DNA of 64,000 nt from positions 840 through 64,839 of the forward strand of contig CALHLD010000001.1 of NCBI GenBank assembly GCA_938034445.1, given 5' to 3'. The DNA is from an uncultured archaeon. GTDB lineage: Archaea > Thermoproteota > Nitrososphaeria > JACIWG01. Numbering within the stretch: position 1 is the first letter of the stretch; each line of letters begins with the position of its first letter. A program made the position numbers and the translations under genes. Positions 1,187-47,280 of this stretch are shown in pieces. Under the pieces are notes generated by a model. It was not told the DNA's origin. It made no database searches and was given only the letters and a program-made list of their open reading frames with translations.

Positions 1187-2632
1187 CTATATTTTTATTC
1201 CAAAGAAGTTATTTAGTACAAATGCTACAAATATTATTGTATAGAAGATAAGTCCAACGACAATAACAAGGATCTCCCACCATTTCATTCTATACTCTTT
1301 TGGAAGTAGCACAAAATTTACTCCAAGAAGTCCAATATAGCAGAAGACGCCAATAAGGTTAGCAAAAGCTCCAGCCAACACAGCCTGCCATGCAGGCTGT
1401 ACTCCAACGAACATCAGAATAATCCATATAACAGAGAGTACAGCTAATATGGTGTAATAGAGTTTCTTAGCGTCACCCTTAAACCTCTTCTCAAGGCTTG
1501 GGAACGCTGTCCACCAAATGTTTGTAAACTCTCTTGGAAGCTGGTCGACAACATTGACTGTGTTTGTAATATACAGTGCAAGTAGCAATATTGTCATTAA
1601 AACAACCAATGCAGGAATTGGCATATAGTTTGCTAATGCTACAGGGAAAGCCCAGCCACTAGGTATTTCCGCACCCCTTGGTACAAGATGATAGGCTAAT
1701 GCTACAGGGAACCATAAGGTTATGAAGCTTCCGAAGAAGAAGACAATCCATAGCTCTAGATGCACATACTTCATCCACCCATTGTATCTCCTAACATTTT
1801 CTGGGTCTGTTTTTGGCAAGTATCCTTTACTCAAAAATGGTACTGCCTTACCTCCAACAACAGCTGGAATGAAACCAGTCTTCTTTGTCATACCCCATTC
1901 TGTATCCCTATAATAGTTGGTCATCATTATAGCATTTGCAGCATAATTTCCAGCATATCCCGCTATTGCAGCAATGATAGCCCAGTTGACACCAGAAGGC
2001 AAGGATCCAAATGCAAAAAATCCTGCAAAAACCTCGAACAGCACATTTGCTGGCACTATTAAGAGTGTAAGTATAACGATTATGCCAACCTCAACAACCA
2101 CGTCCCACCATGAAAGCAATCCTAGCGTCTTCTGTATTTTCTCACCAAACAATAATGGCGCGATTCCTATAAGTAGGCCTACAACACCTAACGCACCAAC
2201 AAGATACTGTTCAGGCGCCTCTGGAGGTCTACCAAGTGCTATATACGCAAATGTCGTTCCTGTTAAAACCATGTAATATGGCCACATTAATCTAACAAAG
2301 TCCGAAATCGTCCAGATTATGGCCCAAGCCTTCTTTCCAATCCAAAGTCTTGAAATACCACTTATTAGTGGTTCTCCTGTGGCCATCGTATATCTTGTTC
2401 CAGCTATACCACTTACTGTTTGGAAAAATATTGAAATTAGTGCAAACCATAGTATTGTAGGTCCATATGACAAGATTGCTAGAGGTCCAGATATAACTTC
2501 TCCTGTTCCTATTCCAACTGAAACGGAAATTATTGCCGGTCCTATAAGAAATCCTATTATGTCTCTGAATCTTGTAACTTTAAAAGGTTCTGGTATATCT
2601 TCTACTCCCCTAAACTCTTTATCGGTGGACAT
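1187..2632 (-). CDS. Nramp-related (APC/LeuT-fold) membrane transporter with non-canonical metal-site motifs
   Basis: 481 aa, about 11-12 hydrophobic segments. N-terminal region GPAIISVSVGIGTGEVISGP...YGPTILWFALISIFFQTVSGIAGTRYTMATGEPL parallels Nramp TM1-TM2 (GPA..S....DPGN....G...GY.LLW....Q....G...G..L), but DPGN is GTGE and no MPH motif is seen. Confidence 0.55.
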   Translation of the reverse strand: MSTDKEFRGVEDIPEPFKVTRFRDIIGFLIGPAIISVSVGIGTGEVISGPLAILSYGPTILWFALISIFFQTVSGIAGTRYTMATGEPLISGISRLWIGKKAWAIIWTISDFVRLMWPYYMVLTGTTFAYIALGRPPEAPEQYLVGALGVVGLLIGIAPLLFGEKIQKTLGLLSWWDVVVEVGIIVILTLLIVPANVLFEVFAGFFAFGSLPSGVNWAIIAAIAGYAGNYAANAIMMTNYYRDTEWGMTKKTGFIPAVVGGKAVPFLSKGYLPKTDPENVRRYNGWMKYVHLELWIVFFFGSFITLWFPVALAYHLVPRGAEIPSGWAFPVALANYMPIPALVVLMTILLLALYITNTVNVVDQLPREFTNIWWTAFPSLEKRFKGDAKKLYYTILAVLSVIWIILMFVGVQPAWQAVLAGAFANLIGVFCYIGLLGVNFVLLPKEYRMKWWEILVIVVGLIFYTIIFVAFVLNNFFGIKI

Positions 2633-2825
2633 TTGTCACCGTATCAAATTTTTACGGAAATCACTATTTAAATTTATTGTTAACATTATTAATTTGTAAA
2701 TTTTTTAATAATTTTAGCAAAGAATTTCTTTTTTATAAAACGTATAAAAGTGGTGTATTCTAAAGTGTGATCATAGCAATAAGTCTTAAAAGCATTATAC
2801 GCTATTATCTTTATCGTGGTAGCGG

Positions 2826-3617
2826 ATGTCATTGGATGTCGAGTTCATTTGTAAAGGTGGTTTTGGTAGTGAAGCTGAAATCGATGTCGAGTTAAGACGT
2901 GTTTTTCCAGGTATTGGTGGAACCATATACACTTACCAGGCTATACCTGTTGCCTTTAGGAGGGAATTTTCTTCTTCACCAAATGTTGGACATAGACTTT
3001 TTCTTAAGCATGCTATAATCAAGAAGCTTGAAGACTATTTTTTTAGGAAGGGTGTCTACCATTACGCTCACGTTACCCGTCCTTTGGGTTCCACGTCAGA
3101 GGGATACATTTATGAGTGGGCTTTTGGTAGTGATGTCTTTCCATGGTACTATTCTGATGATTCTGGAGAAAGTATTCCAGTAGAGCTCGATGATTGGAGA
3201 GCCTTTGTTGAAGCGTTTGAAAGTGCTGGTATCGATTTGAGAAAGGACTGTGCTGACCCAGACAATGGTCGTCTTTCACAGAATATAATTCACCAGTTTC
3301 CCTATGGTGCTAGTGTTAGTAAACCTAAGCTTAATAGGCTTTGGAAGAGGATCGATTTCGGTGACAAGAGTGTTTCAATAGATTTTGACCGTCTCCTCTC
3401 ATTCCTTGAAAGGTATGAGGATGATATGAGGGAAAATCTTAGAATTGGAAGGTTTGATATGATAAAACTTTCATGCAAATATCTTCTTTACGGTGATAGA
3501 ATGGATCCTAAAGAATTTGGTGAGCTCACGATGCTTGTTAGAGACTATAGACTTTCAACTTTATCGCATCTTAATACTAGGGGTGTGGAAAGTTCTGGCG
3601 CTGTTAAACTCTTCTAA
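2826..3617 (+). CDS. Uncharacterised protein with protein-kinase-like motif order
   Basis: 263-aa clean ORF. Motifs GGFGSEAE (G-loop-like), YIYEWAFG (hinge-like), RLSQNIIH (catalytic-loop-like) and KRIDFGD (DFG) occur in the order expected for a kinase-like fold. Confidence 0.5.
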   Translation: MSLDVEFICKGGFGSEAEIDVELRRVFPGIGGTIYTYQAIPVAFRREFSSSPNVGHRLFLKHAIIKKLEDYFFRKGVYHYAHVTRPLGSTSEGYIYEWAFGSDVFPWYYSDDSGESIPVELDDWRAFVEAFESAGIDLRKDCADPDNGRLSQNIIHQFPYGASVSKPKLNRLWKRIDFGDKSVSIDFDRLLSFLERYEDDMRENLRIGRFDMIKLSCKYLLYGDRMDPKEFGELTMLVRDYRLSTLSHLNTRGVESSGAVKLF

Positions 3618-3787
3618 CTTATCACCTACTGTACTGTACATTATAGTCTAATCTGTATAGTTTATTCGGTGTTCTCTGATGTCAATGAAAAGGTTATGGT
3701 AATGTTTAAATAACCGTCATTTTAGGGTTTTTTAGGCGTTTATTATGACAGTTTTTTGTCAAGTAACTGTTATAGAGGTGTTCTTCT

Positions 3788-4045
3788 ATGGATAAGAAGA
3801 CTTCTCAGAAAGAATTTTCTATACTGGACCACTTTCTTGTTCCAAAGCATGAAATTCTTTCTCCAGAGGAAGCTAAAAATGTTTTAGAAACATATCGTGT
3901 TAAGCCGCATCAACTTCCCTACATTTTGTCATCCGATCCTGTAGTTAAGGTGTTAGGTGCTAAGCCGGGTGACATAATAAAGATTACTAGGAAGAGTGAT
4001 GTTGCTGGTGTATCATACTATTACAGGTACGTTATTGAGGGGTGA
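3788..4045 (+). CDS. rpoH: DNA-directed RNA polymerase subunit H (Rpo5/Rpb5 homologue)
   Basis: 85 aa; [56 protein letters not shown] matches the RpoH consensus; directly upstream of and overlapping rpoB. Confidence 0.9.
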
Positions 4046-7000
4046 AAATGGTTTTGGTTGAAAAGAAGGCTTCAGATTTTTGGCCTCTGCTGAAAGCTAT
4101 TATTGAAGAAGAGGGTGTTGCGAGGCAGCATATTAACTCCTATAACGAGTTTGTAAGATATGGTTTACAGGCTATTGTCGACGAAGTTGGGAAGATTGAT
4201 GTTGAAACATTAACGAACCCTTATACGGTGGAATTTGGTAAAATACGTGTAGGCTTCCCCCGTGTTACAGAGCATGATGCTTCAAAAACTCTTGTAACAC
4301 CCATGGAAGCTAGAATGAGAAATCTAACATATTCTGCTCCAATAGAATTGGAGATGAAGATTGTCCAAAATGGTATAGTAACGGACTCGCAATACCTATA
4401 CATTGGAGACCTTCCGGTAATGGTTAAGTCAGACCTATGCTCTCTATCTAAAAAGTCTATAGATGAGCTTATTGAAGAAGGTGAAGACTACCTTGATCCA
4501 GGAGGATATTTTATAATAAATGGTTCTGAACGTGTTATCGTTGGATTAGAAGATCTTGCACCAAACAAAATGCTTGTCGAAGTTAAAAAGCAGGGTGGTG
4601 CAACATTATATAATGTAACAGTCTACTCTTCTGTAATAGGCTACCGTTCTAAGCTTGAAATTTCAATGCACCAGGATGGTGTAATATATGCTCGCTTCTC
4701 TAATCTTCCAACAGACATTCCTGTTGTTGTTCTGATGCGTGCTCTAGGATTGGAATCGGATAGAGAAATAGTTGAAGCTGTCTCACTTAAGCCTGAAATA
4801 CAGGATCTTCTTGGACCCACCTTTGATAAATGTGCTGAAGTTGTTACTGCAAATGATGCGCTAGTATATATTGGAAATAGGGTTGCTCACGGTCTTCAGG
4901 AAGAATATCGTGTTAAACGTGCTGAAAATGTTCTGGATTGGGGTCTATTGCCTCATCTTGGAAAGAATCCTGAAGATAGACTAAGTAAGGCTCTGTTTAT
5001 TGGTGAAGCTGTATGTAAGCTTCTAGAATATAAGCTTGGATGGATTCATGCTGACGATAAAGACCATTATGGAAATAAGGTTATAAGATTGGCTGGACAG
5101 CTTCTCGCAGACCTTTTCAGGACATGCTTTAGGAACCTTGTTAAGGACATGAAGTATCAGCTTGAACATTCTGGCCAAAAGCGTGGTATTGGTGTAGTAA
5201 ATGTAGCCATAAGACCGGGAATTATAACTGATAAGCTGAGGAATGCTATTGCTACGGGAAATTGGGGTAGGGGTAAGGTTGGTATAACACAGCTCTTGGA
5301 TAGGACAAACTATCTTTCTACAATAAGCCATCTTAGAAGAATTCAGTCACCACTTTCAAGAAGTCAGCCTAACTTTGAAGCAAGAGATCTTCATCCTACA
5401 CATTTTGGAAGGGTCTGCCCATGTGAAACTCCTGAAGGTTCAAACTGTGGTCTTGTTAAGAATCTCGCCCTTTCAGCAATAATTTCTGTAGCCTCAGATC
5501 CTAAAGAGATAATGAACATTATTACACAAATTGGATTAATACCCTACAAGGATGCTCCAAGAGAGGTTAAGATGAATGGTGCTAGGGTGTTCTTGGATGG
5601 TGGTGTTGTAGGCTATGTTATAGACCCAGAAGGGTTCTGTAAAGAGTTTAGGAACATGAGAAGGATCGGGCTTATTCCCAGTGATGTAAGCATTTACCTT
5701 AAGGTTCCACCTAACCCGAATGCTGAAACAAGAATATACATTAACACTTACGCTGGAAGGGTTCTTAGGCCTTTGATCATAGTAAAGGATGGTGTTCCAC
5801 AGCTGAGAAAGGAGGATATGGACCTTGTAATAAAGGATAAGATGTCGTGGAGGGAGCTTTTAAAGAGAGGTGAGCTTGAGCTTATTGATGCTAACGAGGA
5901 AGAAAACTGTTATATTGCAACAAGCATTTACGAGCTCACACCAGAACATACCCACTTAGAAATTTCTATGACTGGAATGCTTGGTGCTGTAGCCTCAATA
6001 ATACCTTACGCAGAACATAATCAGTCACCAAGAAACACTTATGAGAGTGCTATGGCTAAGCAGGCTCTTGGTTTTCCAACACCAGTTTACAAACATTTAA
6101 TGAATGTTAGGTCACATCTTCTTTTGTATCCTCAGACTCCGATGGTTACTACAGGCTCTTTTGAAATGCTTAATCTGGATAAGAGGCCTATTGGCCAAAA
6201 TGCCGTTGTAGCAGTTCTCTCCTACGACTGCTATAATATTGAGGATGCTATTGTATTGAATAGGGCTTCTGTGGAAAGAGGGTTTGGTAGAACCTTCTTC
6301 TTCAGACTTTATGAGGCTGAAGCTCAACTTTACCTTGGTGGGATGAAGGATAGGTTTGAAATACCTAACCCCGACTCTAATGTTAAAGGGTATAGGGGTG
6401 ACAAATTCTATAGACTTCTTGAACCTGATGGTGTAGTCTTCCCAGAAGCAAATGTTTCGGGCGGTGATGTTCTGATTGGAAAAGTGAGTCCTCCCAGGTT
6501 TACTGAAGAATATCGTGAAATTGAAGCTGGAGGCCCATACATGCGTGATACTTCTGTAGCGGTCCGTCCATCTGAAACAGGTGTGGTTGACTCCGTCATT
6601 ATGTCAATTAATGTCGAAGGCGGTAAAATGTATAAGGTTAAGGTTAGAGACCTTCGTATACCAGAATTGGGTGACAAGTTTGCTTCAAGACATGGTCAGA
6701 AGGGTGTTGTCGGCTTACTTGCCAACCCAGAGGATCTGCCCTACACCGAAGATGGAATCGTCCCCGACCTAATAATAAACCCACATGCTTTTCCATCAAG
6801 AATGACTGTTGGACAGTTTATAGAATCTATTGCAGGTAAGGTTGGCGCCCTCAGGGGTAAGCCTGTTGACGGAACAACATTCTGTGGAGAAACGGTAGCC
6901 TCACTTGAAAGGCAGCTTGAAGAATTTGGTTTCGTTAAGACTGGTAAGGAAGTAATGTATGATGGCAAAACTGGTGAAAGATATGTTGCCGACATATTCG

Positions 7001-7407
7001 TAGGCGTAGTCTATTATCAGAAGCTACATCATATGGTTGCCGACAAGATTCACGCTAGAGCTAGGGGGCAGGTTCAGATGTTAACTAAACAGCCTACAGA
7101 AGGGCGTTCAAGAGGTGGTGGTCTAAGGTTTGGTGAAATGGAACGTGACTGTCTAATCGCCTATGGAACATCAATGGTTTTAAAGGATAGGCTATTAGAT
7201 GAGTCCGACAAGACTGATGTTCACGTATGTGAAAACTGTGGGCTGATAGCATATTTTGACGCTAAAACTAGAAAGTATACTTGCAGGGTTTGTGGCACTA
7301 ACGCAAAGATAGCCACGGTTTCCATGGCATATGCTTTCAAATTGCTTGTACAGGAAATGATGAGTTTGAACATATTACCTCGCCTGATTTTAAAGGATAA
7401 GATTTGA
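4042..7407 (+). CDS. rpoB: DNA-directed RNA polymerase subunit B (unsplit)
   Basis: 1121 aa with Rpb2 signatures ([42 protein letters not shown]-terminal Zn ribbon CENCG...CRVCG). Start may be the ATG at 4048 rather than the GTG at 4042. Confidence 0.97.
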
Positions 7408-7408
7408 G

Positions 7409-10400
7409 GTGGATATGAAAATGTCTGTTCAAGAAATTCAGAAAAATATTGGTGGAATAAAGTTTTCTGTCTTCTCTCCACAACTTATTAGGGCTTATAG
7501 TGTTGTAGAAATCACAGCTCCAGAAACTTACGATAGAGATGGTTTACCTGTTCCTGGAGGATTAATGGACCCGAGGCTTGGAACACTTGAACCTGGGCAA
7601 AAGTGTGCTACATGCGGTAATACTTCAGCAAAATGTCCAGGCCACTTTGGGCACATTGAGTTAGCGGAGCCTATAATACATGTGGCGTTTGTAGACGACA
7701 TCTACGCCATACTGCAGTCTACTTGTAGGGTTTGTCATAAGCTAATATTAAGTGATGAAGCTATTAACGAATATAAAAAGATTTTAGAAGACAGAAAATA
7801 TGTTACCCCTGAAGTTTATGAAAATATTTCTAGAGAAATTAAGTCTAAAGCTAAAAAGGTTAGACAATGTCCACATTGTGGTAGTGTAAAATATGAGATT
7901 CAGCTTGTCAAGCCTACTACATTCTATGAAATAAGGGAAGAGGGTCCATCACGTCTTCTCGCGAGCTCGATTAGAGCATGGCTTGAGGATATAAACGATA
8001 AAAATCTCATATTGTTAGGATATGATCTTGAAAGGGTGAGGCCTGAATGGTTTGTTTTACAAGTTCTGCCTGTACCGCCTGTTACAGTACGTCCTTCAAT
8101 CATACTTGAGACTGGAATACGTTCTGAAGATGATTTAACACACAAGCTTGTCGACATTCTTAGAACTAATCAAAGGGTTAAGGAGAGTAAGGAGTCGGGT
8201 TCACCCCCTCTTATAGTCCAAGACCTTGTAGACCTTGTGCAGTACCATGTTACAACATATTTTGATAATGAGGTAAGTGGTATTCCACAAGCTCACCACC
8301 GTTCAGGTCGTCCTCTAAGAACTTTAAGCCAGAGGCTTAAGGGTAAAGAGGGTAGGTTTAGAGGAAACCTTTCAGGAAAGCGTGTTGACTTTTCAAGTAG
8401 GACTGTCATCTCTCCTGACCCGAACCTTGACATAAATGAAGTGGGCATTCCTATAGAGGTTGCTAAAAAGCTTACAATTCCAGAGAAGGTTACAAACTGG
8501 AACATTGAAAGGCTAAGACAACTTGTTATTAATGGTGACAATTATCCTGGTGCAAACTATATCATAAGACCTGATGGTGTAAAGATTAGATTAGATTATG
8601 TTCAAGATAGGAAGGCTGTTGCCGCCGCATTAGCCCCAGGATATATTGTCGAAAGACACCTTGTTGACGGTGACATAGTACTATTTAACAGACAACCTTC
8701 ACTTCATAGAATGTCGATTATGGCTCATCATGCTAAAGTTTTACCTGGTAGAACGTTCAGACTTCATCCTGCAGTTTGTCCACCATATAATGCTGACTTC
8801 GATGGCGATGAAATGAACCTTCACGTTCCACAGGGTGAGGAAGCTAGATGTGAAGCTGAACTCTTAATGAGGGTTCAAGATCAGATTCTCTCGCCAAGAT
8901 ATGGTGGACCAATTATTGGTGCAATAAGAGATTTCCTTACAGGAGCATACCTTCTAACAAAAGATGATACATATCTTACAAAAGAAGAGTTTACTAATCT
9001 TGCAAACATCGGAGGATTTACTGGTCCACTACCTGAGCCTGCAATAAAGGAGCCAAAAGAACTTTATCTAGGAAAACAACTCTTCTCACTGTTTCTTTCA
9101 AAAGGTTTCAATTACACCCTTAGAGCAAGCTGGCGTGGAAAACAGGTTGTTATAAAGGATGGTGTGCTTGTTTCCGGTGTTATCGACAAGGCATCAATTG
9201 GCGCAGAAAAGCCTGACAGTATCCTTCATAGGATTGTCAAAGAATATGGTAGTGACGTTGCAAGAAACTTTTTGAACTCAATCTTTAGGGTTATTAAGGC
9301 ATATATTACATCAAAAGGTTTCACCATAGGATATGATGACTTTTGGCTTCCACCAAGTGCTAGAAAGGCTGTAAACCAAGCAATTGCTGAAGCCTACGAT
9401 CGCATAAAGGAACTTCAGAGGCAGTATGAAGAGGGTACCTTACCTCTAATGAGAGGTCTTTCTCCCGAAGAAGCTTTGGAGCTTTACATAGTTAACGAAC
9501 TTTCTAAAGCTCGTGATGACGCTGGAAAGGTTGCTGAAAAACACTTGAGTGACGATAATAGTGCTGTTATAATGGCTAGAACGGGTGCAAGAGGCTCACC
9601 ACTTAATATCGGCCATATGGCTGCAGCTTTAGGACAACAGTCTATACGTGGAAAACGAATAATGAGAGGATATGAAAACAGGGTCTTATGCCACTTTAAA
9701 CCAAATGACCCTAATCCCGATGCAAGAGGCTTTATAAAATCAAATTATAGGGACGGCCTTAATCCACTAGAATTCTTTTTCCACGCCATGGGTGGCAGGG
9801 AAGGTCTAGTCGATACGGCTGTAAGGACTCAACAAAGTGGGTATATGCAGAGGCGTTTGGTTAACGCTATGGAACATCTTAGAGTTGAATATGACCGGAC
9901 TGTCAGAGATCCAGAGGGTGCAATAATACAATTCCTTTATGGTGAAGATGGTGTGGATCCATCTAAGAGTGACCATGGTAAAGCTGTTAATGTTCAAAGA
10001 CTTATTGAAGCAGAACAGCTTGTTGCACAAGGAAAGCCGATTGAACCTGATGAGCTTGAAAACCTACTTAAAGAGTATGCTCATAAGCTCAATCCTAAAC
10101 TGGTTCAGGAATTGAAGACTTCTTTGAGTAAATCGAAGCTTCCTAAACCTAATGTAGAGAATGTGCTAAAGAGGACTGTAGAACTTTTTGAACAAGCTTT
10201 AATTGAACCTGGTGAAGCTGTAGGTGTTGTCGCAGCCCAATCTATAGGTGAGCCAAGTACTCAGATGACTTTAAGAACCTTCCACTTTGCAGGTGTTAGA
10301 GAAAGAGATATCACTTTAGGTCTACCAAGACTTATTGAGCTTGTAGACGCTAGAAGGCAACCATCTACACCTGCAATGGACATATACTTGCTCCCAGAAT

Positions 10401-11203
10401 TTGCTGAAGACCTTAACTTTGCAAGAAAGATTGCTGCAGAAATCAGGTTCTCAAAGATTGGAGATGTTGTGAAAAGTAGTGAAATCGACCCAAGTGGTCA
10501 GATAACATTTGTGCTGGATAAGGAGGCTATGGAAGAACTTGTTGTCACCCCAGAATATGTTGCCTCACAAATAGAAACTGGTAAAAGAAAACCAGAGATA
10601 GTTAACGAGGACACTATAATATTAATGGTTGAAGGAGCCGACCCTGTCTCACTCCAGAGAATGAGGAACAAGATTTTGAACAGCCGACTTAAGGGTATTC
10701 CGGGAATCACTGAAGCCACGGTTGTTAAAGAAGGTTCAGAGTGGGTTATTCAAACAAAAGGCTCAAATCTTTCAAAAGTTTTAAGGATCGAAGGTGTTGA
10801 TCCAACAAGAACCATAACTAACGATATATACGAAATATGGACCACACTTGGGATCGAAGCTGCTAGAGCTGCTCTTGTTAGGGAAATAAGTAAAACGATG
10901 GAAGAGCAAGGTTTGGAGGTAGATATGCGACACATATATTTGGTAGCGGACTTAATGACTGTAACAGGAACGCTAAAGCAGGTCGGCCGCCATGGTGTTG
11001 TCGGAGGGAAGGCGAGTGTTCTAGCAAGAGCTGCATTCGAAATAACAGTTCCCACATTGGCTGAAGCTGCAGTAAAAGGTGAAATTGAGCAGTTAAAGGG
11101 TGTAACCGAAAGTGTTATAGTAGGCCTTCCCATTCCTGTTGGTACTGGAATGGTTGACCTGTTCATAACACAAGGTGAGAATGTTGAACAGAAGCCAAAT
11201 TGA
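7409..11203 (+). CDS. rpoA: DNA-directed RNA polymerase subunit A, with A' and A'' fused in one ORF
   Basis: 1264 aa. A' part has [17 protein letters not shown] and [10 protein letters not shown]; A'' part has [31 protein letters not shown]. No stop or frame change across the expected A'/A'' junction (about 10020-10100). Confidence 0.95.
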   Translation: [1264 protein letters not shown]

Positions 11204-11495
11204 AGCACTACTTGAGCAAGTCACAAAAAAGGGTAAAATAGTGTATGGTGCTAATGAAGTTATGGAAGAGCTTAGGGGTTCAAAGGCTGTTATAGTCTCT
11301 AAATCTGTTAAGCCAGAAGTTAGGCAGAAGCTCTTAAGAGACTGTAAAAAGAACTCTATACCTGTAATCGAATACGATGGTTCATCAATAGATTTAGCTA
11401 GGGCGTTGGGAAAAAACTTTAGAATCTCCGTCCTTTCAATAAAATCTACTGGAGGATTAGATTTAAAACAAATTTTGTCGGAAACTAAAAGTTGA
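11175..11495 (+). CDS. rpl30e: 50S ribosomal protein L30e
   Basis: 106 aa; KGKIVYGANEVMEELRGSKAVIVSKSV...IPVIEYDGSSIDLARALGKNFRISVLSI matches L30e; conserved position after rpoA; start may be the ATG at 11181. Confidence 0.9.
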   Translation: MRMLNRSQIEALLEQVTKKGKIVYGANEVMEELRGSKAVIVSKSVKPEVRQKLLRDCKKNSIPVIEYDGSSIDLARALGKNFRISVLSIKSTGGLDLKQILSETKS

Positions 11496-11950
11496 TTATC
11501 ATGCCTGACAAAATAACATGGTCAACACAAGAACTTGAACTTCTTTCACTTTTCCAAAAAATTAGTGGTGTAACCGCAAGGGATTGTGTTATAGACAATA
11601 AAATGAATCGTGTAATTTTCCTAGTAAACCCTAGCGAAATCGGTCTCGCAATAGGGAGGAAAGGCTCTTGTGTTAAAGCGTTAGAAAACATTATCAAGAA
11701 ACCTGTTGAAATTGTAGCCTACTCAGATGATCCCATACAACTTATAAAAAACACGCTTAACCCAAAATATATTAGCGAAATACGTTTAAGTGAAAGAATG
11801 GATGGAAGTAAAATTGCTGTAGTGGTTTTAACAAGCCCCAAGTTTCAAGGTGCAGTTGTAGGCCTTGGTGGAAAGCATGCAGAAAAAGCACGTCTTCTTG
11901 TAAGAAGATACTTTGACATAGCGGACGTAAGAATTGTTGCCCAAACATAA
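11492..11950 (+). CDS. nusA: Archaeal NusA-like transcription factor (tandem KH domains)
   Basis: 152 aa; KH-type GxxG motifs (IGRKGSCVKAL, VGLGGKHAEKA); conserved position between rpl30e and rps12; likely start ATG at 11501. Confidence 0.85.
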   Translation: MIIMPDKITWSTQELELLSLFQKISGVTARDCVIDNKMNRVIFLVNPSEIGLAIGRKGSCVKALENIIKKPVEIVAYSDDPIQLIKNTLNPKYISEIRLSERMDGSKIAVVVLTSPKFQGAVVGLGGKHAEKARLLVRRYFDIADVRIVAQT

Positions 11951-11998: not shown

Positions 11999-13963
11999 AT
12001 GGGGAAAAAATCGCCTGTAGGAGAATTTGCAGCACGCAAACTGATAGAGAAAAGACAAAAGTTTAGATGGTCTAGTAAAAGGTATATTAAACGTGCACTA
12101 AGGATAAAAGAAAGATTCGATCCACTCGAAGGCGCTCCTCAAGCAAGAGGCATAGTGCTGGAAAAGGTTGGTGTAGAATCAAAGCAGCCTAACTCAGCTA
12201 TAAGAAAATGTGTTGCACCCGACACAAAAATAATGTTGGAAGACGGTGTACTACGGATAAAAGATCTGTCTAATAAATGGTCTGATACGAGAATACTTTC
12301 ATATAATTATCATGACAAAAAGATTGAGCCGACGAATTTAGTTGACTATTTTTCTATAAAGGATTGGGAAGTTGAGGAGCTTGGTTTGTATGAACTTATT
12401 ACAGAAACTGGTAGAAGGCTGATTGGAAGCGGAGACCATCCAATTTATACAGCTAGAGGTATAGTAAATTTAAGGGAAGTTAAAGTAGGTGATAAAGTTA
12501 TAGTTTTACCTTCCGAGCCGCCATTTAAAGAAGAAAGGGATGATGTGATTTTAAATGAAGAGGATATATTGAATGTTGCACCGGAAAAAAGCAATAAAGA
12601 TAGAATTTTAGCTGTGCTTAAAGAAAAAGGTCTTATACCATTAAAATACAGTAATCCAAATATTACAAAGATAGTGAAACTTGTTGGCCACCTCTTCGGT
12701 GACGGTTCACTAAGCCACTCTAAATCAGGCACAGGAATGAGTGGAAAGGTTGTCGTCTCAGGAAATTTTGAAGACTTAGATGATATTAAAAGTGATATTG
12801 AATCCTTAGGTTTTCACTGCTCGCCCATCTATAGAGGATACTCAGAAAGTGTTGTTGACTATGGTTCAGGGCAGCTTCTTATTCGAGGAAATTATCATGC
12901 AGTCCAATGTAACTCTATAGCCCTTTTCACGTTCTTTAAGGCCTTAGGCGTGCCGGTTGGCTCAAAAAGTGATGTAGAGTATAGTTTACCTAAATGGGTC
13001 GTGAATGCTCCACTTTGGATAAAAAGAGAATTTTTAGCATCCTTCTTTGGAAGTGAACTGGAGTCACCCAGAGTTAATGTATCAACATTTTATCCACCAT
13101 CTTTTGCTATAAGTAAAAGGTCTGAGCTACTAGATAGTGGGTTAAGGTTTGTTAACGAATTAAAAGAATTGCTTAAAGAATTTGATGTAAAAGTTTCAAG
13201 TATTAAGGTCTTAAATGGAGTTAAAAGGAGTGATGGTTCATCAACTTACAAGATTATAGTATATATTGCATCGAATATAGACAATCTTATTAATTTGTAC
13301 GGGAAGATAGGATATGAGTATAATAGTATGAGGAAGGTTAGAGCCCGTTATGCCTACCAATATTTAAGGTTGAGAAAACAAAGGATAGAAGCAACAAAAG
13401 AAGCATATAATATTGCATTAAGGTTAAAATCTAACGGCCTATCTTTAGCGAAAATAGCTGAAACTTTACAGACTCAAGGCTATACTTGGATAAATAAGGG
13501 CATTGTACAATATTGGTTATCGAGGAATGTTGATTTAAATAAACTAAATACTACACAACGTTTTATACCATTTGATAAGTGGGTTAAAGAGAGCACGTTA
13601 GGCCTTTCCTCAGGCCTTGTATGGGAGCAAGTTAGATCAGTTAATCCGCTAAAGCTTAATATTGAACTTTATGATGTGACAACAGCGAGCGAAGCTCACA
13701 ATTTCTTTGCCAACAATATTTTGACTGGAAACTGTGTTCGTGTGCAGCTTATTAAAAATAATAAGCAGATTACAGCCTTCTTGCCTGGCGATGGTGCCTT
13801 AAACTATGTGGACGAACATGATGAAGTTCATGTTGAGGGTATTGGCGGTACTTTAGGCCGTTCGATGGGAGACATTCCAGGTGTAAGGTATAAAGTTTTT
13901 AAAGTAAACGGTATTTCTCTTCAGATGCTTGTTCTTGGTCGTAAGGAGAAGCCTAGGAGGTAG
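11999..13963 (+). CDS. rps12: 30S ribosomal protein S12 precursor interrupted by an intein
   Basis: 654-aa ORF. Residues 1-70 (..[20 protein letters not shown]) plus 579-654 ([32 protein letters not shown]..) together give a normal 146-aa archaeal S12. Confidence 0.95.
12209..13732 (+). mobile_element. Intein (508 aa) with LAGLIDADG homing-endonuclease domain inside rps12
   Basis: Cys1 block A ([13 protein letters not shown]), block B (GSGDHPIYT), two LAGLIDADG motifs ([11 protein letters not shown]; [13 protein letters not shown]), HTH-like [11 protein letters not shown], block F/G ([22 protein letters not shown]), then Cys+1. Confidence 0.9.
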
Positions 13964-13971
13964 CCTGTAGG

Positions 13972-14580
13972 ATGTCGTCTAAGCCAGAGTATCAGCATCT
14001 GCTTCTATTCGGTAAATGGAGTTTTAAGGATGTTAAGGTGAATGATATCGGTTTAAAAAGTGTTATAGACCTTAAACCTGTACTTTTGCCCCATTCTTTT
14101 GGAAGACATGAGCATCAAAAGTTCGCGAAATCTAAAGTGAATGTTGTTGAACGTTTAGCTAACGACCTTATGCATTTTGGTAAAAAGTATGCAAAGAATA
14201 CTGGTAGAATGGGTGGTAAGAAATATCATGCCCTAAAAATTGTGAGATCAGCTTTCGAAATAATACAATTGAGGACTGGAATGAATCCTATTCAAGTGCT
14301 CGTTAGAGCGTTAGAGAATGCTGCACCAAACGAGGACACTACAAGAATAATGTATGGTGGTGTAGTGTATCATGTTGCAGTCGACATTTCACCTCAAAGG
14401 CGCTTGGACCTCGCATTAAGGTTCATTTCAGAAGGTGTGAGGGAAGCGACCTTTAATAAAATGATTTCTGTTGAAGAAGCATTGGCTGAAGAATTAATTC
14501 TTGCAGCTAACAATGACCAAAACAGTTATGCAATCAAAAAGAAGAATGAGCAGGAACGTATAGCTTTATCCTCAAGATAA
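13972..14580 (+). CDS. rps7: 30S ribosomal protein S7
   Basis: 202 aa; typical archaeal S7 sequence (..VERLANDLMHFGKKYAKNTGRMGGKK..IQVLVRALENAAPNEDTTRI..); conserved position after rps12. Confidence 0.95.
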   Translation: MSSKPEYQHLLLFGKWSFKDVKVNDIGLKSVIDLKPVLLPHSFGRHEHQKFAKSKVNVVERLANDLMHFGKKYAKNTGRMGGKKYHALKIVRSAFEIIQLRTGMNPIQVLVRALENAAPNEDTTRIMYGGVVYHVAVDISPQRRLDLALRFISEGVREATFNKMISVEEALAEELILAANNDQNSYAIKKKNEQERIALSSR

Positions 14581-14645: not shown

Positions 14646-15944
14646 ATGTCTACTAAACCTCATCTCAACCTAGTAGTAACAGGACACGTAGACCATGGAA
14701 AGTCGACTACAATGGGCCACTTCCTAGTACAGATTGGCGCAATCGACCAACGTACTATAGAAGAGTATGCAAAAGAATCTGAAAAGTTTGGTGCAGGAGA
14801 CACGTTCAAATATGCTTGGGTTCTCGATAGGTTAAAGGATGAACGTGAACGTGGTGTAACCATAGACCTTGCCTTCCAAAAGTTCGAAACCAAAAAATAC
14901 TATTATACACTGATAGATGCTCCAGGACATAGAGACTTTGTTAAAAACATGATTACTGGTGCAAGCCAAGCCGACGTCGCAATAATAGTCCTATCAGCAA
15001 AACCTGGTGAAACCGAAGTTGGTGTAGGATTTGGAGGCCAGACGAGAGAACATGCTTTCCTACTAAGAACACTTGGTGTAACACAGGTGATTCCAGTAAT
15101 AAATAAAATGGATGATCCGACAGTGAAATATTCTGAAGAAAGGTATAAGGCTGTAAAGGCTGAGTTCGAGAAGCTTCTTAGAATGGTAGGCTATGATGTA
15201 ACAAAAATACCGTTCATTCCAGTATCCGGTTGGGCTGGCGACAATCTGACAACAAGGTCTCCGAACATGCCATGGTATAAGGGTCCAACTTTAATTGAAG
15301 CTCTTGACATGGTTTCAGAGCCTCCGAAGCCAATCGATAAACCATTCCGTCTTCCTGTACAGGATGTTTACTCTATCACAGGTGTTGGCACAGTTCCAGT
15401 TGGAAGGGTTGAAACAGGTGTTGTTAAGGTCGGTGACAAGGTAGTAATAGCTCCAGCTAACCTTAAAGCTGAAGTTAAATCTATTGAAATGCATCATACG
15501 CCTATAGAGAAGGCTATTCCAGGAGACAACATTGGCATAAACCTTAGGGGTGTCTCGAAACAGGATATCAAAAGAGGTTATGTGATAGGTCCAGCTGACA
15601 ATCCGCCAACAGTAGCAAAGGAGTTCATAGCACAAATAATAGTAATATATCATCCATCCGCAATATCCGCTGGATATACACCAGTACTCCATGCGCACAC
15701 TGCACAGGTTGCAACAACATTCAAGGAGCTTATCGCAAAAATTGATCCAAGAAGTGGTCAAATAGTTGAAGAAAAGCCTAAGTCTCTAAAGACAGGCGAT
15801 AGCGCGCTTGTTAGACTCGCTCCATTAAGACCCCTTTGTATAGAGCCGTATAGTGTAATTCCACAGTTAGGACGGTTTGCAATTCGTGATATGGGTACAA
15901 CAATAGGCGCTGGAATAGTTAAGGAGGTAACCGTAAAAGGCTAA
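14646..15944 (+). CDS. tuf: Translation elongation factor EF-1alpha (aEF-1A)
   Basis: 432 aa; GTPase motifs GHVDHGKST, DAPGHRDF, NKMD; full-length similarity to aEF-1alpha. Confidence 0.97.
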   Translation: MSTKPHLNLVVTGHVDHGKSTTMGHFLVQIGAIDQRTIEEYAKESEKFGAGDTFKYAWVLDRLKDERERGVTIDLAFQKFETKKYYYTLIDAPGHRDFVKNMITGASQADVAIIVLSAKPGETEVGVGFGGQTREHAFLLRTLGVTQVIPVINKMDDPTVKYSEERYKAVKAEFEKLLRMVGYDVTKIPFIPVSGWAGDNLTTRSPNMPWYKGPTLIEALDMVSEPPKPIDKPFRLPVQDVYSITGVGTVPVGRVETGVVKVGDKVVIAPANLKAEVKSIEMHHTPIEKAIPGDNIGINLRGVSKQDIKRGYVIGPADNPPTVAKEFIAQIIVIYHPSAISAGYTPVLHAHTAQVATTFKELIAKIDPRSGQIVEEKPKSLKTGDSALVRLAPLRPLCIEPYSVIPQLGRFAIRDMGTTIGAGIVKEVTVKG

Positions 15945-44619: not shown

Positions 44620-47280
44620 TTATCTTTTTCTAACAATTCCTATCGCTATCTTTCCAGCTACCATTATTATAATTGCTATTAGAAGAGGTATAATATACCT
44701 TGAAAGTAAATCGTCTGAAACTCTTAATTTAATAGTTTGCGGCCCTGTCCTAAGAACCTCTCCCTTATAATTGAATAGTATCTCTGAAGTGCTCATAGTA
44801 TACTCTCTTGCACTACTGCTTAACATTTTTAAAACTATAGCTTCCCTTCCACCTTCCAGAGCTCCGATTGCAATTTCTATAATGTTATCCTCAACTTTTG
44901 CTTTGGACGGTGAAAGGTTTTCTATAATTTTAATTTGTGCTGGTACTGTAATATTAAATTTTATTCCCTCAATTTTTATTGGTGTATTGTTTTCCACAAC
45001 TATCTTAAATTCAAAGGTTTTACCTTCAACAGTCTCTCCTTCTGTTGAAAAGACTATTTTTGGAAGCTGGTACACGTTAATGTAAGCTTTGGTCGAGTTA
45101 GCCGTATACTGTTTTCCTCCAAAGAAATATCTTGTTTTCACGAAAATGCTGTTGTTTAAGCCCACTTGTCTTCCATTTACTTTAAAGTCTACCCTTTCTT
45201 GTGAACCAGATTTTATTACAGTCCTATTTAATGAGCTTGCTGTTGTAATGTTTAATAGGGGACTGTAAACGAGTTCGGATGAAACCATGTATATGTTCTT
45301 GTCTCCAAAATTATTTATACTATAATATCCGCTTAAATTATAGTTTTGGAAGATATTGTTTTCTTCTAAAAATAATATTATCTTTAATCCTATTGGAATT
45401 CCATTTAATGTGCTTAAACTAACATATTTTTGGTTGCCTACAATATATTCCGCATATGCTGGTTCTAGAACATAATTTTTACCGTAATCTTCCACCTCAA
45501 GAAGGTTTGTGTACGCTTTCGAGCTATTTGCAGCAATCTTTTCCTCAAAATGATACATTCTATCATCTTTTAAAGTGAAGGTTCCGTTAACATATTTTAA
45601 TCCTTTTGGCACCTTATCTACGATAGTAATATTGTACACATCTTTCGCTCCATAACTTTTAACATTCAATGTTAAATTCAATAAAATCCTGTTGTCTAAA
45701 GAAATTTGTTTAATATCCCTTTCCAGGCTTAAGGTTGTGATTCCCAATTTACCGTAAGCGTTTGTTAACATTATATTATTTGATACTGAACTTTTTATTT
45801 CTTTTCCATCACCCCATTGGCATTGGATAACTTCTTCTTTGAATGGTTGGCTTACATTATCTAGATTAAACCTAACTATCATTCGTATTTTTTCTTGTGG
45901 AGGTAAATTTGCTATCTTTTCTCCACCTACCATTATGTCGAAGGCTGTTAAACTGCCTCCATTCTTTATCTCAAGAACGGTTTCTCTATCGGTTCCAAAG
46001 TTTGTTTGGGAAGAACCTGTTGTAGCGAGAACATATACTGATGCTCCATCTTTGTTCAAGAGAATATATGCGTCATTGGAGTAAGATCTAAAGCCTACCT
46101 TTTCCCCTCCAACATTCCAAAAGTACACCACTTCTAATGGTTTCAAATGTATGCTATCAGCATTTTTGGATTGAACTTTTAACCTATATACTGTGGTGTA
46201 GTTTTCTCCTGGGTTCAGCCTACTTATCTGATCATAATATTTTCCAATCATAAACTCGAATTTTCCGCTTTCGATCCACCATTCGTCCTCGAATTTTATG
46301 TCTTCTGCACTATATGCTCCAATATTTCTTAATTTTACCTGTACCTCAAATTCGTCATCAAATTTTAAGGCCGTTTTCGAAATTTCTCTTTGCACTATAA
46401 TGCTTGGTGTAGCTGTAGCCAATGTTATGTTTGGAAAGTGTAAAACACTGTTTCCTGAAACAGTTAATGTGAGTTCGGAAACCTTTTTGACAGTTTCTCG
46501 TCTAATATATCCTGCGTCACTATTTTCAATAACCTGTCCATAAGATATTATCTTTAAGCTGCTTAACTTGGAGTAGGTTGAACTATTTACTCTAGTTGTG
46601 TGGAATAGGTCTAATCCACTTCTAAGCATGTTTCCTGAATAAATGTTTGTCTTTAGGGTGTCAATTACTATATCTTGGTAGAGTCTTCCATTTACAATTT
46701 TTCCTATAATACCGAATTCCTTTATTTTTGAGGATAGTATGTCCTTTTTGTTTAATATGTTTGTGAAGCCGCCGTAAGAGGCTGGAACCTTTTTCCATAC
46801 AAAATTTTCTAGAACCTCCTCAAATGAGGCTGGTGAAATAAATAAAAACATTTCCCCATCCTTTCCATAGGGAATGAAGGAAAGTCCTGTAAGGCTCTCA
46901 ATTTCTTCTGCAAACCCACTTGCTTCCTTTAATGTTTTTGAGTGTATATATAATGTTGCAAGTTTCGGGGTCATGCTATTACATAAGAGTATATTGTATC
47001 CTAGCTCATTAAAGTATGCGATTTCTGTTGGAAGTGTGTCGAATTGGCTTATATAAAGTCTAAAATAATCTATGCCAGAAAATTTTTCTCTTAAAATTTG
47101 TGAATCTATTATCCCAATATCTGTTCCAGTAAAATTGTATCTTATGAGAACATTTTTTCCAACAACATATAATGTAATATTCTCATAATATTCTGTAGAT
47201 TCTGTTGCGTGTGATGATAATGATAATGTTGATAGTACTAGTGTAGCAAGTATGATTAAAGCTATAGCCTTTCTTACCAT
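44620..47280 (-). CDS. Large cell-surface protein: signal peptide, beta-rich ectodomain with CARDB/DUF11-like repeats, C-terminal TM anchor
   Basis: 886 aa; N-terminal MVRKAIALIILATLVLSTLSLSS, C-terminal IIPLLIAIIIMVAGKIAIGIV-RKR, many N-x-S/T sequons; repeat-like segments FEVQVKLRNIGAYSAEDIKFED and LNVKSYGAKDVYNITIVDKVPKGLKYVNG. Confidence 0.6.
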   Translation of the reverse strand: MVRKAIALIILATLVLSTLSLSSHATESTEYYENITLYVVGKNVLIRYNFTGTDIGIIDSQILREKFSGIDYFRLYISQFDTLPTEIAYFNELGYNILLCNSMTPKLATLYIHSKTLKEASGFAEEIESLTGLSFIPYGKDGEMFLFISPASFEEVLENFVWKKVPASYGGFTNILNKKDILSSKIKEFGIIGKIVNGRLYQDIVIDTLKTNIYSGNMLRSGLDLFHTTRVNSSTYSKLSSLKIISYGQVIENSDAGYIRRETVKKVSELTLTVSGNSVLHFPNITLATATPSIIVQREISKTALKFDDEFEVQVKLRNIGAYSAEDIKFEDEWWIESGKFEFMIGKYYDQISRLNPGENYTTVYRLKVQSKNADSIHLKPLEVVYFWNVGGEKVGFRSYSNDAYILLNKDGASVYVLATTGSSQTNFGTDRETVLEIKNGGSLTAFDIMVGGEKIANLPPQEKIRMIVRFNLDNVSQPFKEEVIQCQWGDGKEIKSSVSNNIMLTNAYGKLGITTLSLERDIKQISLDNRILLNLTLNVKSYGAKDVYNITIVDKVPKGLKYVNGTFTLKDDRMYHFEEKIAANSSKAYTNLLEVEDYGKNYVLEPAYAEYIVGNQKYVSLSTLNGIPIGLKIILFLEENNIFQNYNLSGYYSINNFGDKNIYMVSSELVYSPLLNITTASSLNRTVIKSGSQERVDFKVNGRQVGLNNSIFVKTRYFFGGKQYTANSTKAYINVYQLPKIVFSTEGETVEGKTFEFKIVVENNTPIKIEGIKFNITVPAQIKIIENLSPSKAKVEDNIIEIAIGALEGGREAIVLKMLSSSAREYTMSTSEILFNYKGEVLRTGPQTIKLRVSDDLLSRYIIPLLIAIIIMVAGKIAIGIVRKR

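Follow-up and report, generated by a model that had tools for sequence, protein, structure and literature searches.

A probable class-1 intein with a LAGLIDADG endonuclease in ribosomal protein uS12 of an uncultured member of the Nitrososphaeria

The gene for ribosomal protein uS12 (rps12) on a 64,000-nucleotide stretch of DNA from an uncultured archaeon of the Nitrososphaeria (GenBank assembly GCA_938034445.1, contig CALHLD010000001.1; the whole stretch is called the window in the following) encodes a protein of 654 residues, in which a segment of 508 residues separates the two parts of a conventional uS12. We conclude, with a confidence of close to nine in ten, that residues 71-578 constitute a class-1 intein that harbours a LAGLIDADG homing endonuclease and sits in frame between Lys70 and Cys579. 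A preliminary, sequence-only reading of the window had arrived at the same class and had considered S12 as a possibly undescribed intein host. The latter suggestion did not survive: the same intein occupies the same site in entries of RefSeq and GenBank and in 120 or more protein clusters, public databases already list it by name, and the window copy does not represent a new host. Since the same allele has been catalogued there, the finding counts as already known, and the value of the present analysis lies in confirmation and context rather than in discovery. What remains of interest is the unusual host, the absence of a penultimate histidine throughout the clade and the existence of cultured carriers.

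Host protein and insertion junction

The features assigned within the gene are given below with their positions in the window.

11999-13963, plus strand: rps12 (uS12 with intein), 654 residues, frame open across 654 codons
11999-12208, plus strand: N-extein of uS12, residues 1-70, ending in ...KQPNSAIRK; first piece of the PF00164 and TIGR00982 matches
12209-13732, plus strand: intein of 508 residues (71-578), a class-1 splicing domain interrupted by a LAGLIDADG endonuclease
12209-12541, plus strand: N-terminal splicing region (about residues 71-181)
12209-12211, plus strand: block A, Cys71
12428-12439, plus strand: block B, S144-G-D-H147 (within GSGDHPIYT, residues 143-151)
12644-13318, plus strand: LAGLIDADG endonuclease core (about residues 216-440)
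12680-12712, plus strand: LAGLIDADG motif 1, residues 228-238, LVGHLFGD235G, with Asp235
13031-13069, plus strand: LAGLIDADG motif 2, residues 345-357, FLASFFGSE353L, with Glu353
13325-13594, plus strand: helical accessory module (residues 443-532)
13667-13732, plus strand: C-terminal splicing blocks F/G, residues 557-578, with Asn578 as terminal and Gly577 as penultimate residue
13733-13963, plus strand: C-extein of uS12, residues 579-654 plus stop codon, starting with the +1 nucleophile Cys579

The length of the open reading frame (ORF), the sequence quoted from it and the bounds of the insert (12209-13732) were given exactly in the sequence-only reading: the insert runs from the first nucleotide of codon 71 (Cys), 12209, to the last of codon 578 (Asn), 13732. 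Its proposal that residues 1-70 and 579-654 join into a normal S12 was borne out as well. Joined to each other, they form a uS12 of 146 residues that aligns without gaps to archaeal uS12, and in a phmmer search against the sequences of the PDB residues 2-72 and 579-654 are collinear with residues 3-73 and 72-147 of the solved uS12 proteins from Thermococcus and Pyrococcus (expect values, E, of about 1e-55 to 1e-57). The Pfam family Ribosom_S12_S23 (PF00164) matches the 654-residue ORF in two pieces (3.7e-41), and two-piece matches with scores over the respective cut-offs were also obtained for the NCBIfam uS12 equivalogs NF003254 and TIGR00982.

The exact point of insertion is apparent from intein-free alleles. 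For 76 such alleles, taken from species representatives in GTDB, the sequence at the junction is PNSA[IVL]RK^[CA]VRVQL (carets mark insertion points and splice junctions here and below). The nearest intein-free relatives are two metagenome-assembled genomes (MAGs) of Nitrososphaeria (L005 and L006), the flanks of which share 72-78% nucleotide identity with the window. Their protein junction, PNSAIRK^CVRVQL, is identical to that of the window protein once residues 71-578 are taken out, which settles the junction that had been put forward from the window alone. On the DNA level the empty rps12 site of the L006 type is TCAAAGCAGCCTAACTCAGCCATTAGAAAA^TGTGTTCGTGTTCAGCTTATAAAAAACAAC, and the reconstituted site of the window differs from those in L005 and L006, which are candidate targets of the endonuclease, at third codon positions only. 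The empty alleles of relatives display just the sequence that exact excision would leave. As these alleles carry the same Cys, the +1 nucleophile Cys579 is a native residue of uS12; Cys at this position is also native in most empty alleles. The sequence-only reading had placed the insertion a few residues past the PNSA loop, and the distance is in fact three residues. This loop, as is established for uS12, reaches the decoding centre, and Lys62 of the window protein corresponds to the lysine of E. coli S12 that is classically associated with streptomycin resistance.

Splicing domain and homing endonuclease

Blocks A, B and F/G, the two LAGLIDADG motifs and Cys+1 are all present at the residues at which they had been located by the sequence-only reading, and its assignment to class 1 holds for profile matches, fold and conserved splicing residues alike. 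Pfam Intein_splicing (PF14890) covers residues 78-576 (3.4e-12) and exceeds its gathering score, while TIGR01445 (intein_Nterm) matches residues 71-151 (1.1e-09) and TIGR01443 (intein_Cterm) residues 557-579, both passing their cut-offs. Together with the matches of the exteins to uS12, this lies far above what chance would produce. The insert furthermore combines Cys1, the S/T-x-x-H of block B, Asp559 at position F:4, His567 at position F:13, a terminal Asn578 and Cys+1 with a HINT fold in the AlphaFold2 model, and it is an in-frame insertion whose removal restores a conserved host protein. A bacterial-intein-like or Hedgehog-type domain was considered as an alternative identity and is ruled out by the terminal Asn and Cys+1.

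The catalytic residues are conserved throughout the family. All 118 residues aligned in the column of Cys71 are Cys. In block B, Ser or Thr at position 144 and His147 occur in 120 of 120 homologues and Asp146 in 119 of 120; Asp559, Thr561, His567, Asn568, Phe569, Ala571, Asn572 and Asn578 are invariant across the 120 homologues, and Cys579 (+1) is kept in every one of them (120/120). Judged by these residues, the window intein is very likely competent for splicing.

Between the two splicing regions lie two LAGLIDADG helices, each of which is closed by a catalytic acidic residue. Asp235 is kept in 113 and Glu353 in 116 of 121 sequences, and both are intact in the window copy, for which endonuclease activity is likely. 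The HTH-like (helix-turn-helix-like) segment that had been noticed downstream stands as a confidently modelled helical module (residues 443-532) with helices at residues 443-478, 483-492, 500-508 and 525-532 and a predicted local distance difference test (pLDDT) score of about 90 or more in the AlphaFold2 model; its likeness to HTH domains found no counterpart in a Pfam scan of the region, which returned no family at all and no HTH family, and the module is deleted in some relatives. It is probably a DNA-binding add-on of the endonuclease. Residues from about 458 to 522 are deleted in three family members (P0114, P0106 and P0111) that retain all splicing residues, and the helical module thus appears dispensable for splicing. 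Six full-length members lack one or both of the endonuclease acids and likewise retain every splicing residue. Loss of the acids or of the module in some relatives is what one would expect if the endonuclease decays towards the end of a homing cycle.

Structure prediction

The AlphaFold2 model, built from a 56-sequence alignment, exhibits pLDDT values mostly above 90 over residues 70-570, splicing regions included, and its endonuclease core follows an alpha-beta-beta-alpha-beta-beta-alpha pattern that is duplicated in one chain. As the intein alone has no sequence relative in the PDB at E<=0.01 (phmmer), only comparison of folds links it to inteins of known structure. The best matches in a Foldseek search against the PDB are TliVMA (E 2.8e-17) and PhoVMA (7qss, 7qst), PI-PfuI (1dq3), PI-TkoII (2cw7) and PI-SceI (1vde, 1lws), with E values from 2.8e-17 to 1e-8. 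All share with the uS12 intein a HINT domain interrupted by a two-motif LAGLIDADG endonuclease. They differ from it in sequence (9-16% identity) and in their hosts (VMA ATPase, ribonucleotide reductase and DNA polymerase), and the global template modelling (TM) scores of 0.2-0.4 are low because domain orientations and accessory domains differ. Next in rank are the free-standing I-AniI, I-SceI, I-DmoI and variants of I-OnuI, the bI3 maturase (for these LAGLIDADG enzymes E 2e-6 to 3e-4, TM (target) 0.42-0.66) and WhiA. The mini-inteins DnaB, RecA and gp41-1 superimpose with TM (target) values of 0.54-0.60 and a root mean square deviation of 1.9-3 Å.

In the model of the precursor both extein halves have pLDDT values below 50. 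Either the uS12 fold is unable to form prior to splicing or this is a mere limitation of the modelling, and we do not interpret the observation.

Occurrence of the uS12 intein

A search of 5.8 billion proteins yielded at least 120 clusters, originating from NCBI, JGI, ENA and Logan assemblies, in which uS12 carries the same intein. The proteins comprise 583-720 residues and are 42-100% identical to the window protein; the median identity of the intein across 120 homologues is 44%. A protein identical to the 654-residue product of the window is present in NCBI/ENA. With a degenerate DNA pattern laid over the C-terminal junction and a complete listing of its matches, 31 occupied GTDB species representatives were found, and 31 of 31 were verified as uS12 with the intein at the same site. 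They are labelled as Nitrososphaerales/Thaumarchaeota, Bathyarchaeota, Iainarchaeum, Aenigmatarchaeota, Woesearchaeota, Micrarchaeota and Methanosarcinales, which takes in several DPANN phyla, and the protein matches add Thermoproteales (Caldivirga, Vulcanisaeta) and Hadarchaeaceae. The K^C...N^C junction after PNSA-x-R-K is common to all 31 GTDB matches and to all 120 clusters. Among the genomes fetched, the one nearest to the window is Nitrososphaeria MAG-19 (L103, JACIWG010000053), with a nucleotide identity of 81.9% across 8 kb, and it has the same intein end.

The coexistence of occupied and empty alleles among relatives, for which the sequence-only reading had suggested a survey, is real: the 31 occupied representatives stand beside the 76 intein-free alleles fetched. 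The pattern for the empty site has at least 120 matches, and haloarchaea, methanogens, Sulfolobales, Asgard lineages, DPANN and Nitrososphaeria are among the matches listed. Occupied alleles are a scattered minority across archaea; the profile scan (at least 600 matches) and the scan with the empty-site pattern (at least 120) provide lower bounds and no occupancy fraction.

Three RefSeq entries bear the name 'intein-containing 30S ribosomal protein S12', WP_012185390.1 from Caldivirga maquilingensis and WP_188602501.1 and WP_054843451.1 from Vulcanisaeta souniana. The C. maquilingensis uS12 intein is also found in GenBank (ABW01170.1, on a contig of 2,077,567 bp), and in JGI the label 'ribosomal protein S12/intein/homing endonuclease' is in use. 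Since the complete genomes of the cultured C. maquilingensis and V. souniana carry the intein, culturable organisms evidently live with it, and the carriers in both genera are open to experiments. Their intein-containing S12 proteins agree with that of the window in host, in the K^C point after PNSA-x-R-K, in size (661-662 residues as compared to 654), in the blocks and in the lack of a penultimate His, and overall identity is about 50% at 100% coverage. On the other hand, about half of the aligned residues differ, and the organisms belong to the Thermoproteales and not to the Nitrososphaeria. In a variant from a Caldivirga sp. MAG (P0114, 596 residues) both endonuclease acids and the helical module are gone; the window copy, by contrast, is intact.

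In some cases (L083, positions 1582-4110, and P0124, 812 residues) the frames for uS12 with intein extend about 150-190 residues upstream of the usual S12 start. These extensions could be stop-free read-through, gene-calling artefacts or real fusions.

Divergence and selection

Among the full-length relatives for which DNA was fetched, the closest is L231, a contig from a JGI metagenome whose genes follow the same order. Between the window and this contig the proteins encoded by neighbouring genes are 92-96% identical (L30e 78%), the exteins 99% and the intein 69%. The proportions of nonsynonymous (pN) and synonymous (pS) differences in the intein are 0.18 and 0.73, respectively, and near-equal values apply to the N-terminal splicing part, the endonuclease core (pN 0.17, pS 0.73) and the C-terminal splicing part. 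By this contrast the whole intein, endonuclease included, is under purifying selection. Synonymous divergence (dS) is saturated, which renders ratios of nonsynonymous to synonymous divergence (dN/dS) approximate, and we use only the contrast of pN far below pS. The nonsynonymous divergence of the intein from its counterpart in L231 is about six times that of the neighbouring genes. Across the family the identities of intein and extein are correlated (Spearman 0.76), and their comparison revealed no clear outliers that would indicate a specific recent horizontal transfer, the power of this comparison being limited by co-conversion of the flanks and by the slow evolution of uS12.

These data bear on the possibility that the intein is fixed and immobile, that is, that it still splices while its endonuclease is inactive or has run out of targets in the population, and that it persists as imprecise deletion from an essential gene would be lethal. 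The correlation of identities suggests long vertical residence, and the rapid nonsynonymous divergence relative to neighbouring genes, the several relatives without catalytic acids or helical module and the failure of the Pfam LAGLIDADG models to recognize the endonuclease domain are all in keeping with such a state. However, both motifs and their acids are intact in the window and are kept in 93-96% of the family, constraint on the endonuclease core matches that on the splicing domain, and near-identical empty target DNA exists in related Nitrososphaeria, where homing targets are therefore available. Taken together, we consider a fixed and immobile intein unlikely, albeit an alternative to be taken seriously.

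Assessment and proposed mechanism

Several points weigh against the identification of residues 71-578 as a class-1 intein with a homing endonuclease. The penultimate His (block G:6) is absent, and Gly577 is found instead. This Gly had already been remarked upon in the sequence-only reading as a departure from the usual His, and it is indeed present, but it is not peculiar to the window copy: the family has Gly (69), Ser (40), Lys (9), Leu (1) or Arg (1) at this position and His in no case. The penultimate Gly is thus a trait of a lineage with mostly Gly, Ser or Lys and not a defect of the window copy. About 5% of functional inteins have a residue other than His at the penultimate position (PMC4031507), and Gly577 does therefore not exclude membership in class 1. 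Of the profile searches that had been proposed for the insert, those with intein families were successful, whereas Pfam LAGLIDADG_1, LAGLIDADG_2 and LAGLIDADG_3 matched neither the whole intein (E<=1) nor residues 208-444 (E<=10), which leaves the endonuclease assignment to the two motifs and the fold. The saturation of dS dealt with above belongs here as well, and the co-variation of intein and extein identity may mean that much of the spread occurred vertically or between relatives and not by recent homing. In addition, rps12 is presumably single-copy, though a second, intein-free copy may exist. Splicing and cleavage are inferred activities, and a full-text literature search retrieved no paper describing or testing a uS12 intein, the supplementary tables of Novikova et al. 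being outside that search.

Under the reading as an intein with a homing endonuclease, the precursor of 654 residues would be translated first. An N-S acyl shift at Cys71, aided by Ser144 and His147 of block B, would be followed by attack of Cys579 to give a branched intermediate. Cyclization of Asn578 would then be helped by Asp559 and His567 of block F instead of a penultimate His, and an S-N shift would release a uS12 of 146 residues with a native junction together with a free intein of about 58 kDa. According to this prediction, the endonuclease of the free intein would cleave rps12 alleles that lack the intein at AAYTCNGCNATHMGNAAR^TGYGTNMGNGTNCAR, a site of high conservation, and repair from an occupied allele would copy the intein into the cut gene, thus accomplishing homing. 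It is a sound inference that every ribosome would depend on splicing. With the insertion three residues from the decoding-centre loop, this dependence would extend to every small subunit in all carriers.

A further possibility is that the intein has been co-opted as a conditional splicing switch, by which the supply of uS12 and of 30S subunits would respond to redox state, temperature or other stress, possibly via a Cys71-Cys579 disulfide or another redox trap. Both nucleophiles are invariant Cys, but Cys1 and Cys+1 are also the commonest intein nucleophiles. According to established knowledge uS12 limits the rate at which ribosomes are assembled, and the insertion site lies right beside the decoding loop, yet no feature of the sequence specifically points to regulation. 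Retention of the intein over wide phylogenetic distances would fit a switch, and a review devotes a section to conditional protein splicing (PMC4031507); on the other hand, most archaea, close relatives included, do without the intein, and its endonuclease is conserved as expected of a selfish element. We regard a switch as improbable. Slightly more doubtful still is the specific proposal that the uS12 intein constitutes a post-translational gate on ribosome biogenesis, in which splicing, relying on two Cys nucleophiles and on an active site without a penultimate His, is slowed by oxidative or thermal stress. If this were true, the assembly of new decoding-competent 30S subunits would track the conditions of the cell, and the retention across distant archaeal phyla would be explained.

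An artefact or a dead insertion, be it an assembly chimera, which the sequence-only reading had named as a formal possibility, or a pseudogenized rps12 with an unused product, finds no supporting point and can practically be dismissed, given the same architecture in at least 120 independent clusters that include complete genomes of cultured strains, the frame open over 654 codons, the conserved catalytic residues, the canonical operon and a syntenic relative that looks alike. Independent assemblies, genomes of cultured strains and conservation exclude the chimera, and the same assemblies and genomes along with the pattern of conservation exclude the pseudogene.

Inteins are concentrated in proteins of replication, repair and nucleotide metabolism. 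Core transcriptional and translational components 'contain few inteins', as stated in a passage of the survey by Novikova et al. (PMC4760082). The clade to which the uS12 intein belongs offers a natural system for the study of splicing without a penultimate His, of the movement of inteins between unrelated hosts and of splicing as a possible limit on ribosome assembly.

Related inteins in other host proteins

When the intein by itself was searched exhaustively with phmmer against 1.84 billion representatives, 934 matches were obtained at E<=1e-3, 158 of them at E<=1e-30. Roughly ten uS12 clusters rank first and are followed by relatives in other hosts at 30-38% identity. The hosts and insertion sites of these related inteins are:

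RtcB, site 1: GFDIN^CGVRL
RtcB, site 2: GYGF^CIGGVAA
RNA polymerase A': RLNPSV^C.PYNADFDGDE
RNA polymerase B: ETPEGPN^CGLVKNLA
Pus10: FHG^[CS]GREDID
Radical-SAM protein: inside CNFSCPW^C
Thioredoxin: W^CGPC

A penultimate His is missing from many of the closest relatives as well: in the 128 of them whose C-terminal junction is complete, the junctions include SNC (48), GNC (7), KNC (4) and HNC (54). The inteins of RtcB share with the uS12 intein the order of domains and 30-36% identity, and many of them end in S-N^C and not in H-N^C; they differ in that their host is the tRNA ligase RtcB and in their insertion sites. Owing to this kinship no curated model scores higher on the insert than NF038162 ('intein-containing RtcB family protein'), which reaches 342 bits over intein residues only. 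Identity of the protein as RtcB was considered and rejected, as the 342 bits (model positions 94-587, the intein part) compare with a cut-off of 1150 and the exteins are those of uS12. In JGI many uS12-intein proteins are labelled 'tRNA-splicing ligase RtcB' (for example P0028, P0036, P0039, P0051 and P0063), apparently a mislabelling that arises because the uS12 intein resembles those of RtcB.

The inteins of RNA polymerase subunits A' and B (P0126, P0128, P0136, P0127 and L004 from ANME-1) belong to the same clade, with 31-38% identity, and start with CVAPDT and end with ANGFLT[GK]N^C. Just like the uS12 intein they reside immediately ahead of a functional Cys in a protein at the core of information processing, while host and site differ. 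The RpolA' intein of M. jannaschii is reportedly among the inteins that Chen, Benner and Perler studied in 2000 for their missing penultimate His. In the ANME-1 member (Methanophagaceae, PQXB01000001.1; L004, positions 1660-6171) the A' intein is 33% identical, ends in LLTGN^C and is located just before the catalytic NADFDGD. It contains a Gly/Glu-rich low-complexity insert near its N-terminus, and its host protein features low-complexity stretches rich in Ala/Gly/Glu/Ser and in Lys/Glu/Arg.

Further inteins of the clade occupy the redox site of thioredoxin-like proteins (P0175, P0205, P0209 and P0232; FWA.W^CGPCK), for which the host is deduced from the motif only and in which the +1 nucleophile would be the first Cys of CGPC. 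A related intein splits a radical-SAM protein within its CxxxCxxC iron-sulfur motif (P0125; CNFSCPW^CQN), and others are present in the tRNA pseudouridine synthase Pus10 (P0129, P0132, P0133 and P0135), some of them with Ser at position +1.

Gene neighbourhood and further observations

In the window rps12 is part of the canonical archaeal cluster rpoB-rpoA-L30e-NusA-S12-S7-EF1alpha. The neighbouring genes and a nearby tRNA gene are located as follows:

935-1009: tRNA-Lys
4042-7407: rpoB, in the canonical archaeal cluster
7409-11203, plus strand: rpoA, unsplit, a single ORF of 1264 residues
11175-11495: L30e
11492-11950: NusA
13972-14580: S7
14646-15944: EF-1alpha

The G+C content of the insert (0.32-0.39) is lower than that of its flanks (about 0.40), a dip that is small and not diagnostic. 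No second intein is detectable in the 64-kb window. Nitrososphaerota (Thaumarchaeota) typically have an rpoA gene that is not divided into A' and A'', and the unsplit rpoA of the window agrees with the taxonomic labels of its nearest relatives. A different arrangement is seen on another JGI contig (3300045887, Ga0495965_000076; L232, positions 6001-10571), whose intein is 69% identical to that of the window. Here, S12-S7-EF1alpha is detached from rpoA, L30e and NusA, a gene for a dihydroorotase-like amidohydrolase is situated upstream, and an extra ORF of 98 residues lies between S7 and EF-1alpha.

Two ORFs that adjoin the tRNA-Lys gene, 1187-2632 on the minus strand (481 residues) and 2826-3617 on the plus strand (263 residues), match no Pfam family at E<=1e-5. 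A further ORF at 44620-47280 on the minus strand (886 residues) has only weak DUF11 and TRAP-beta-like matches and may encode a surface or secreted repeat protein.

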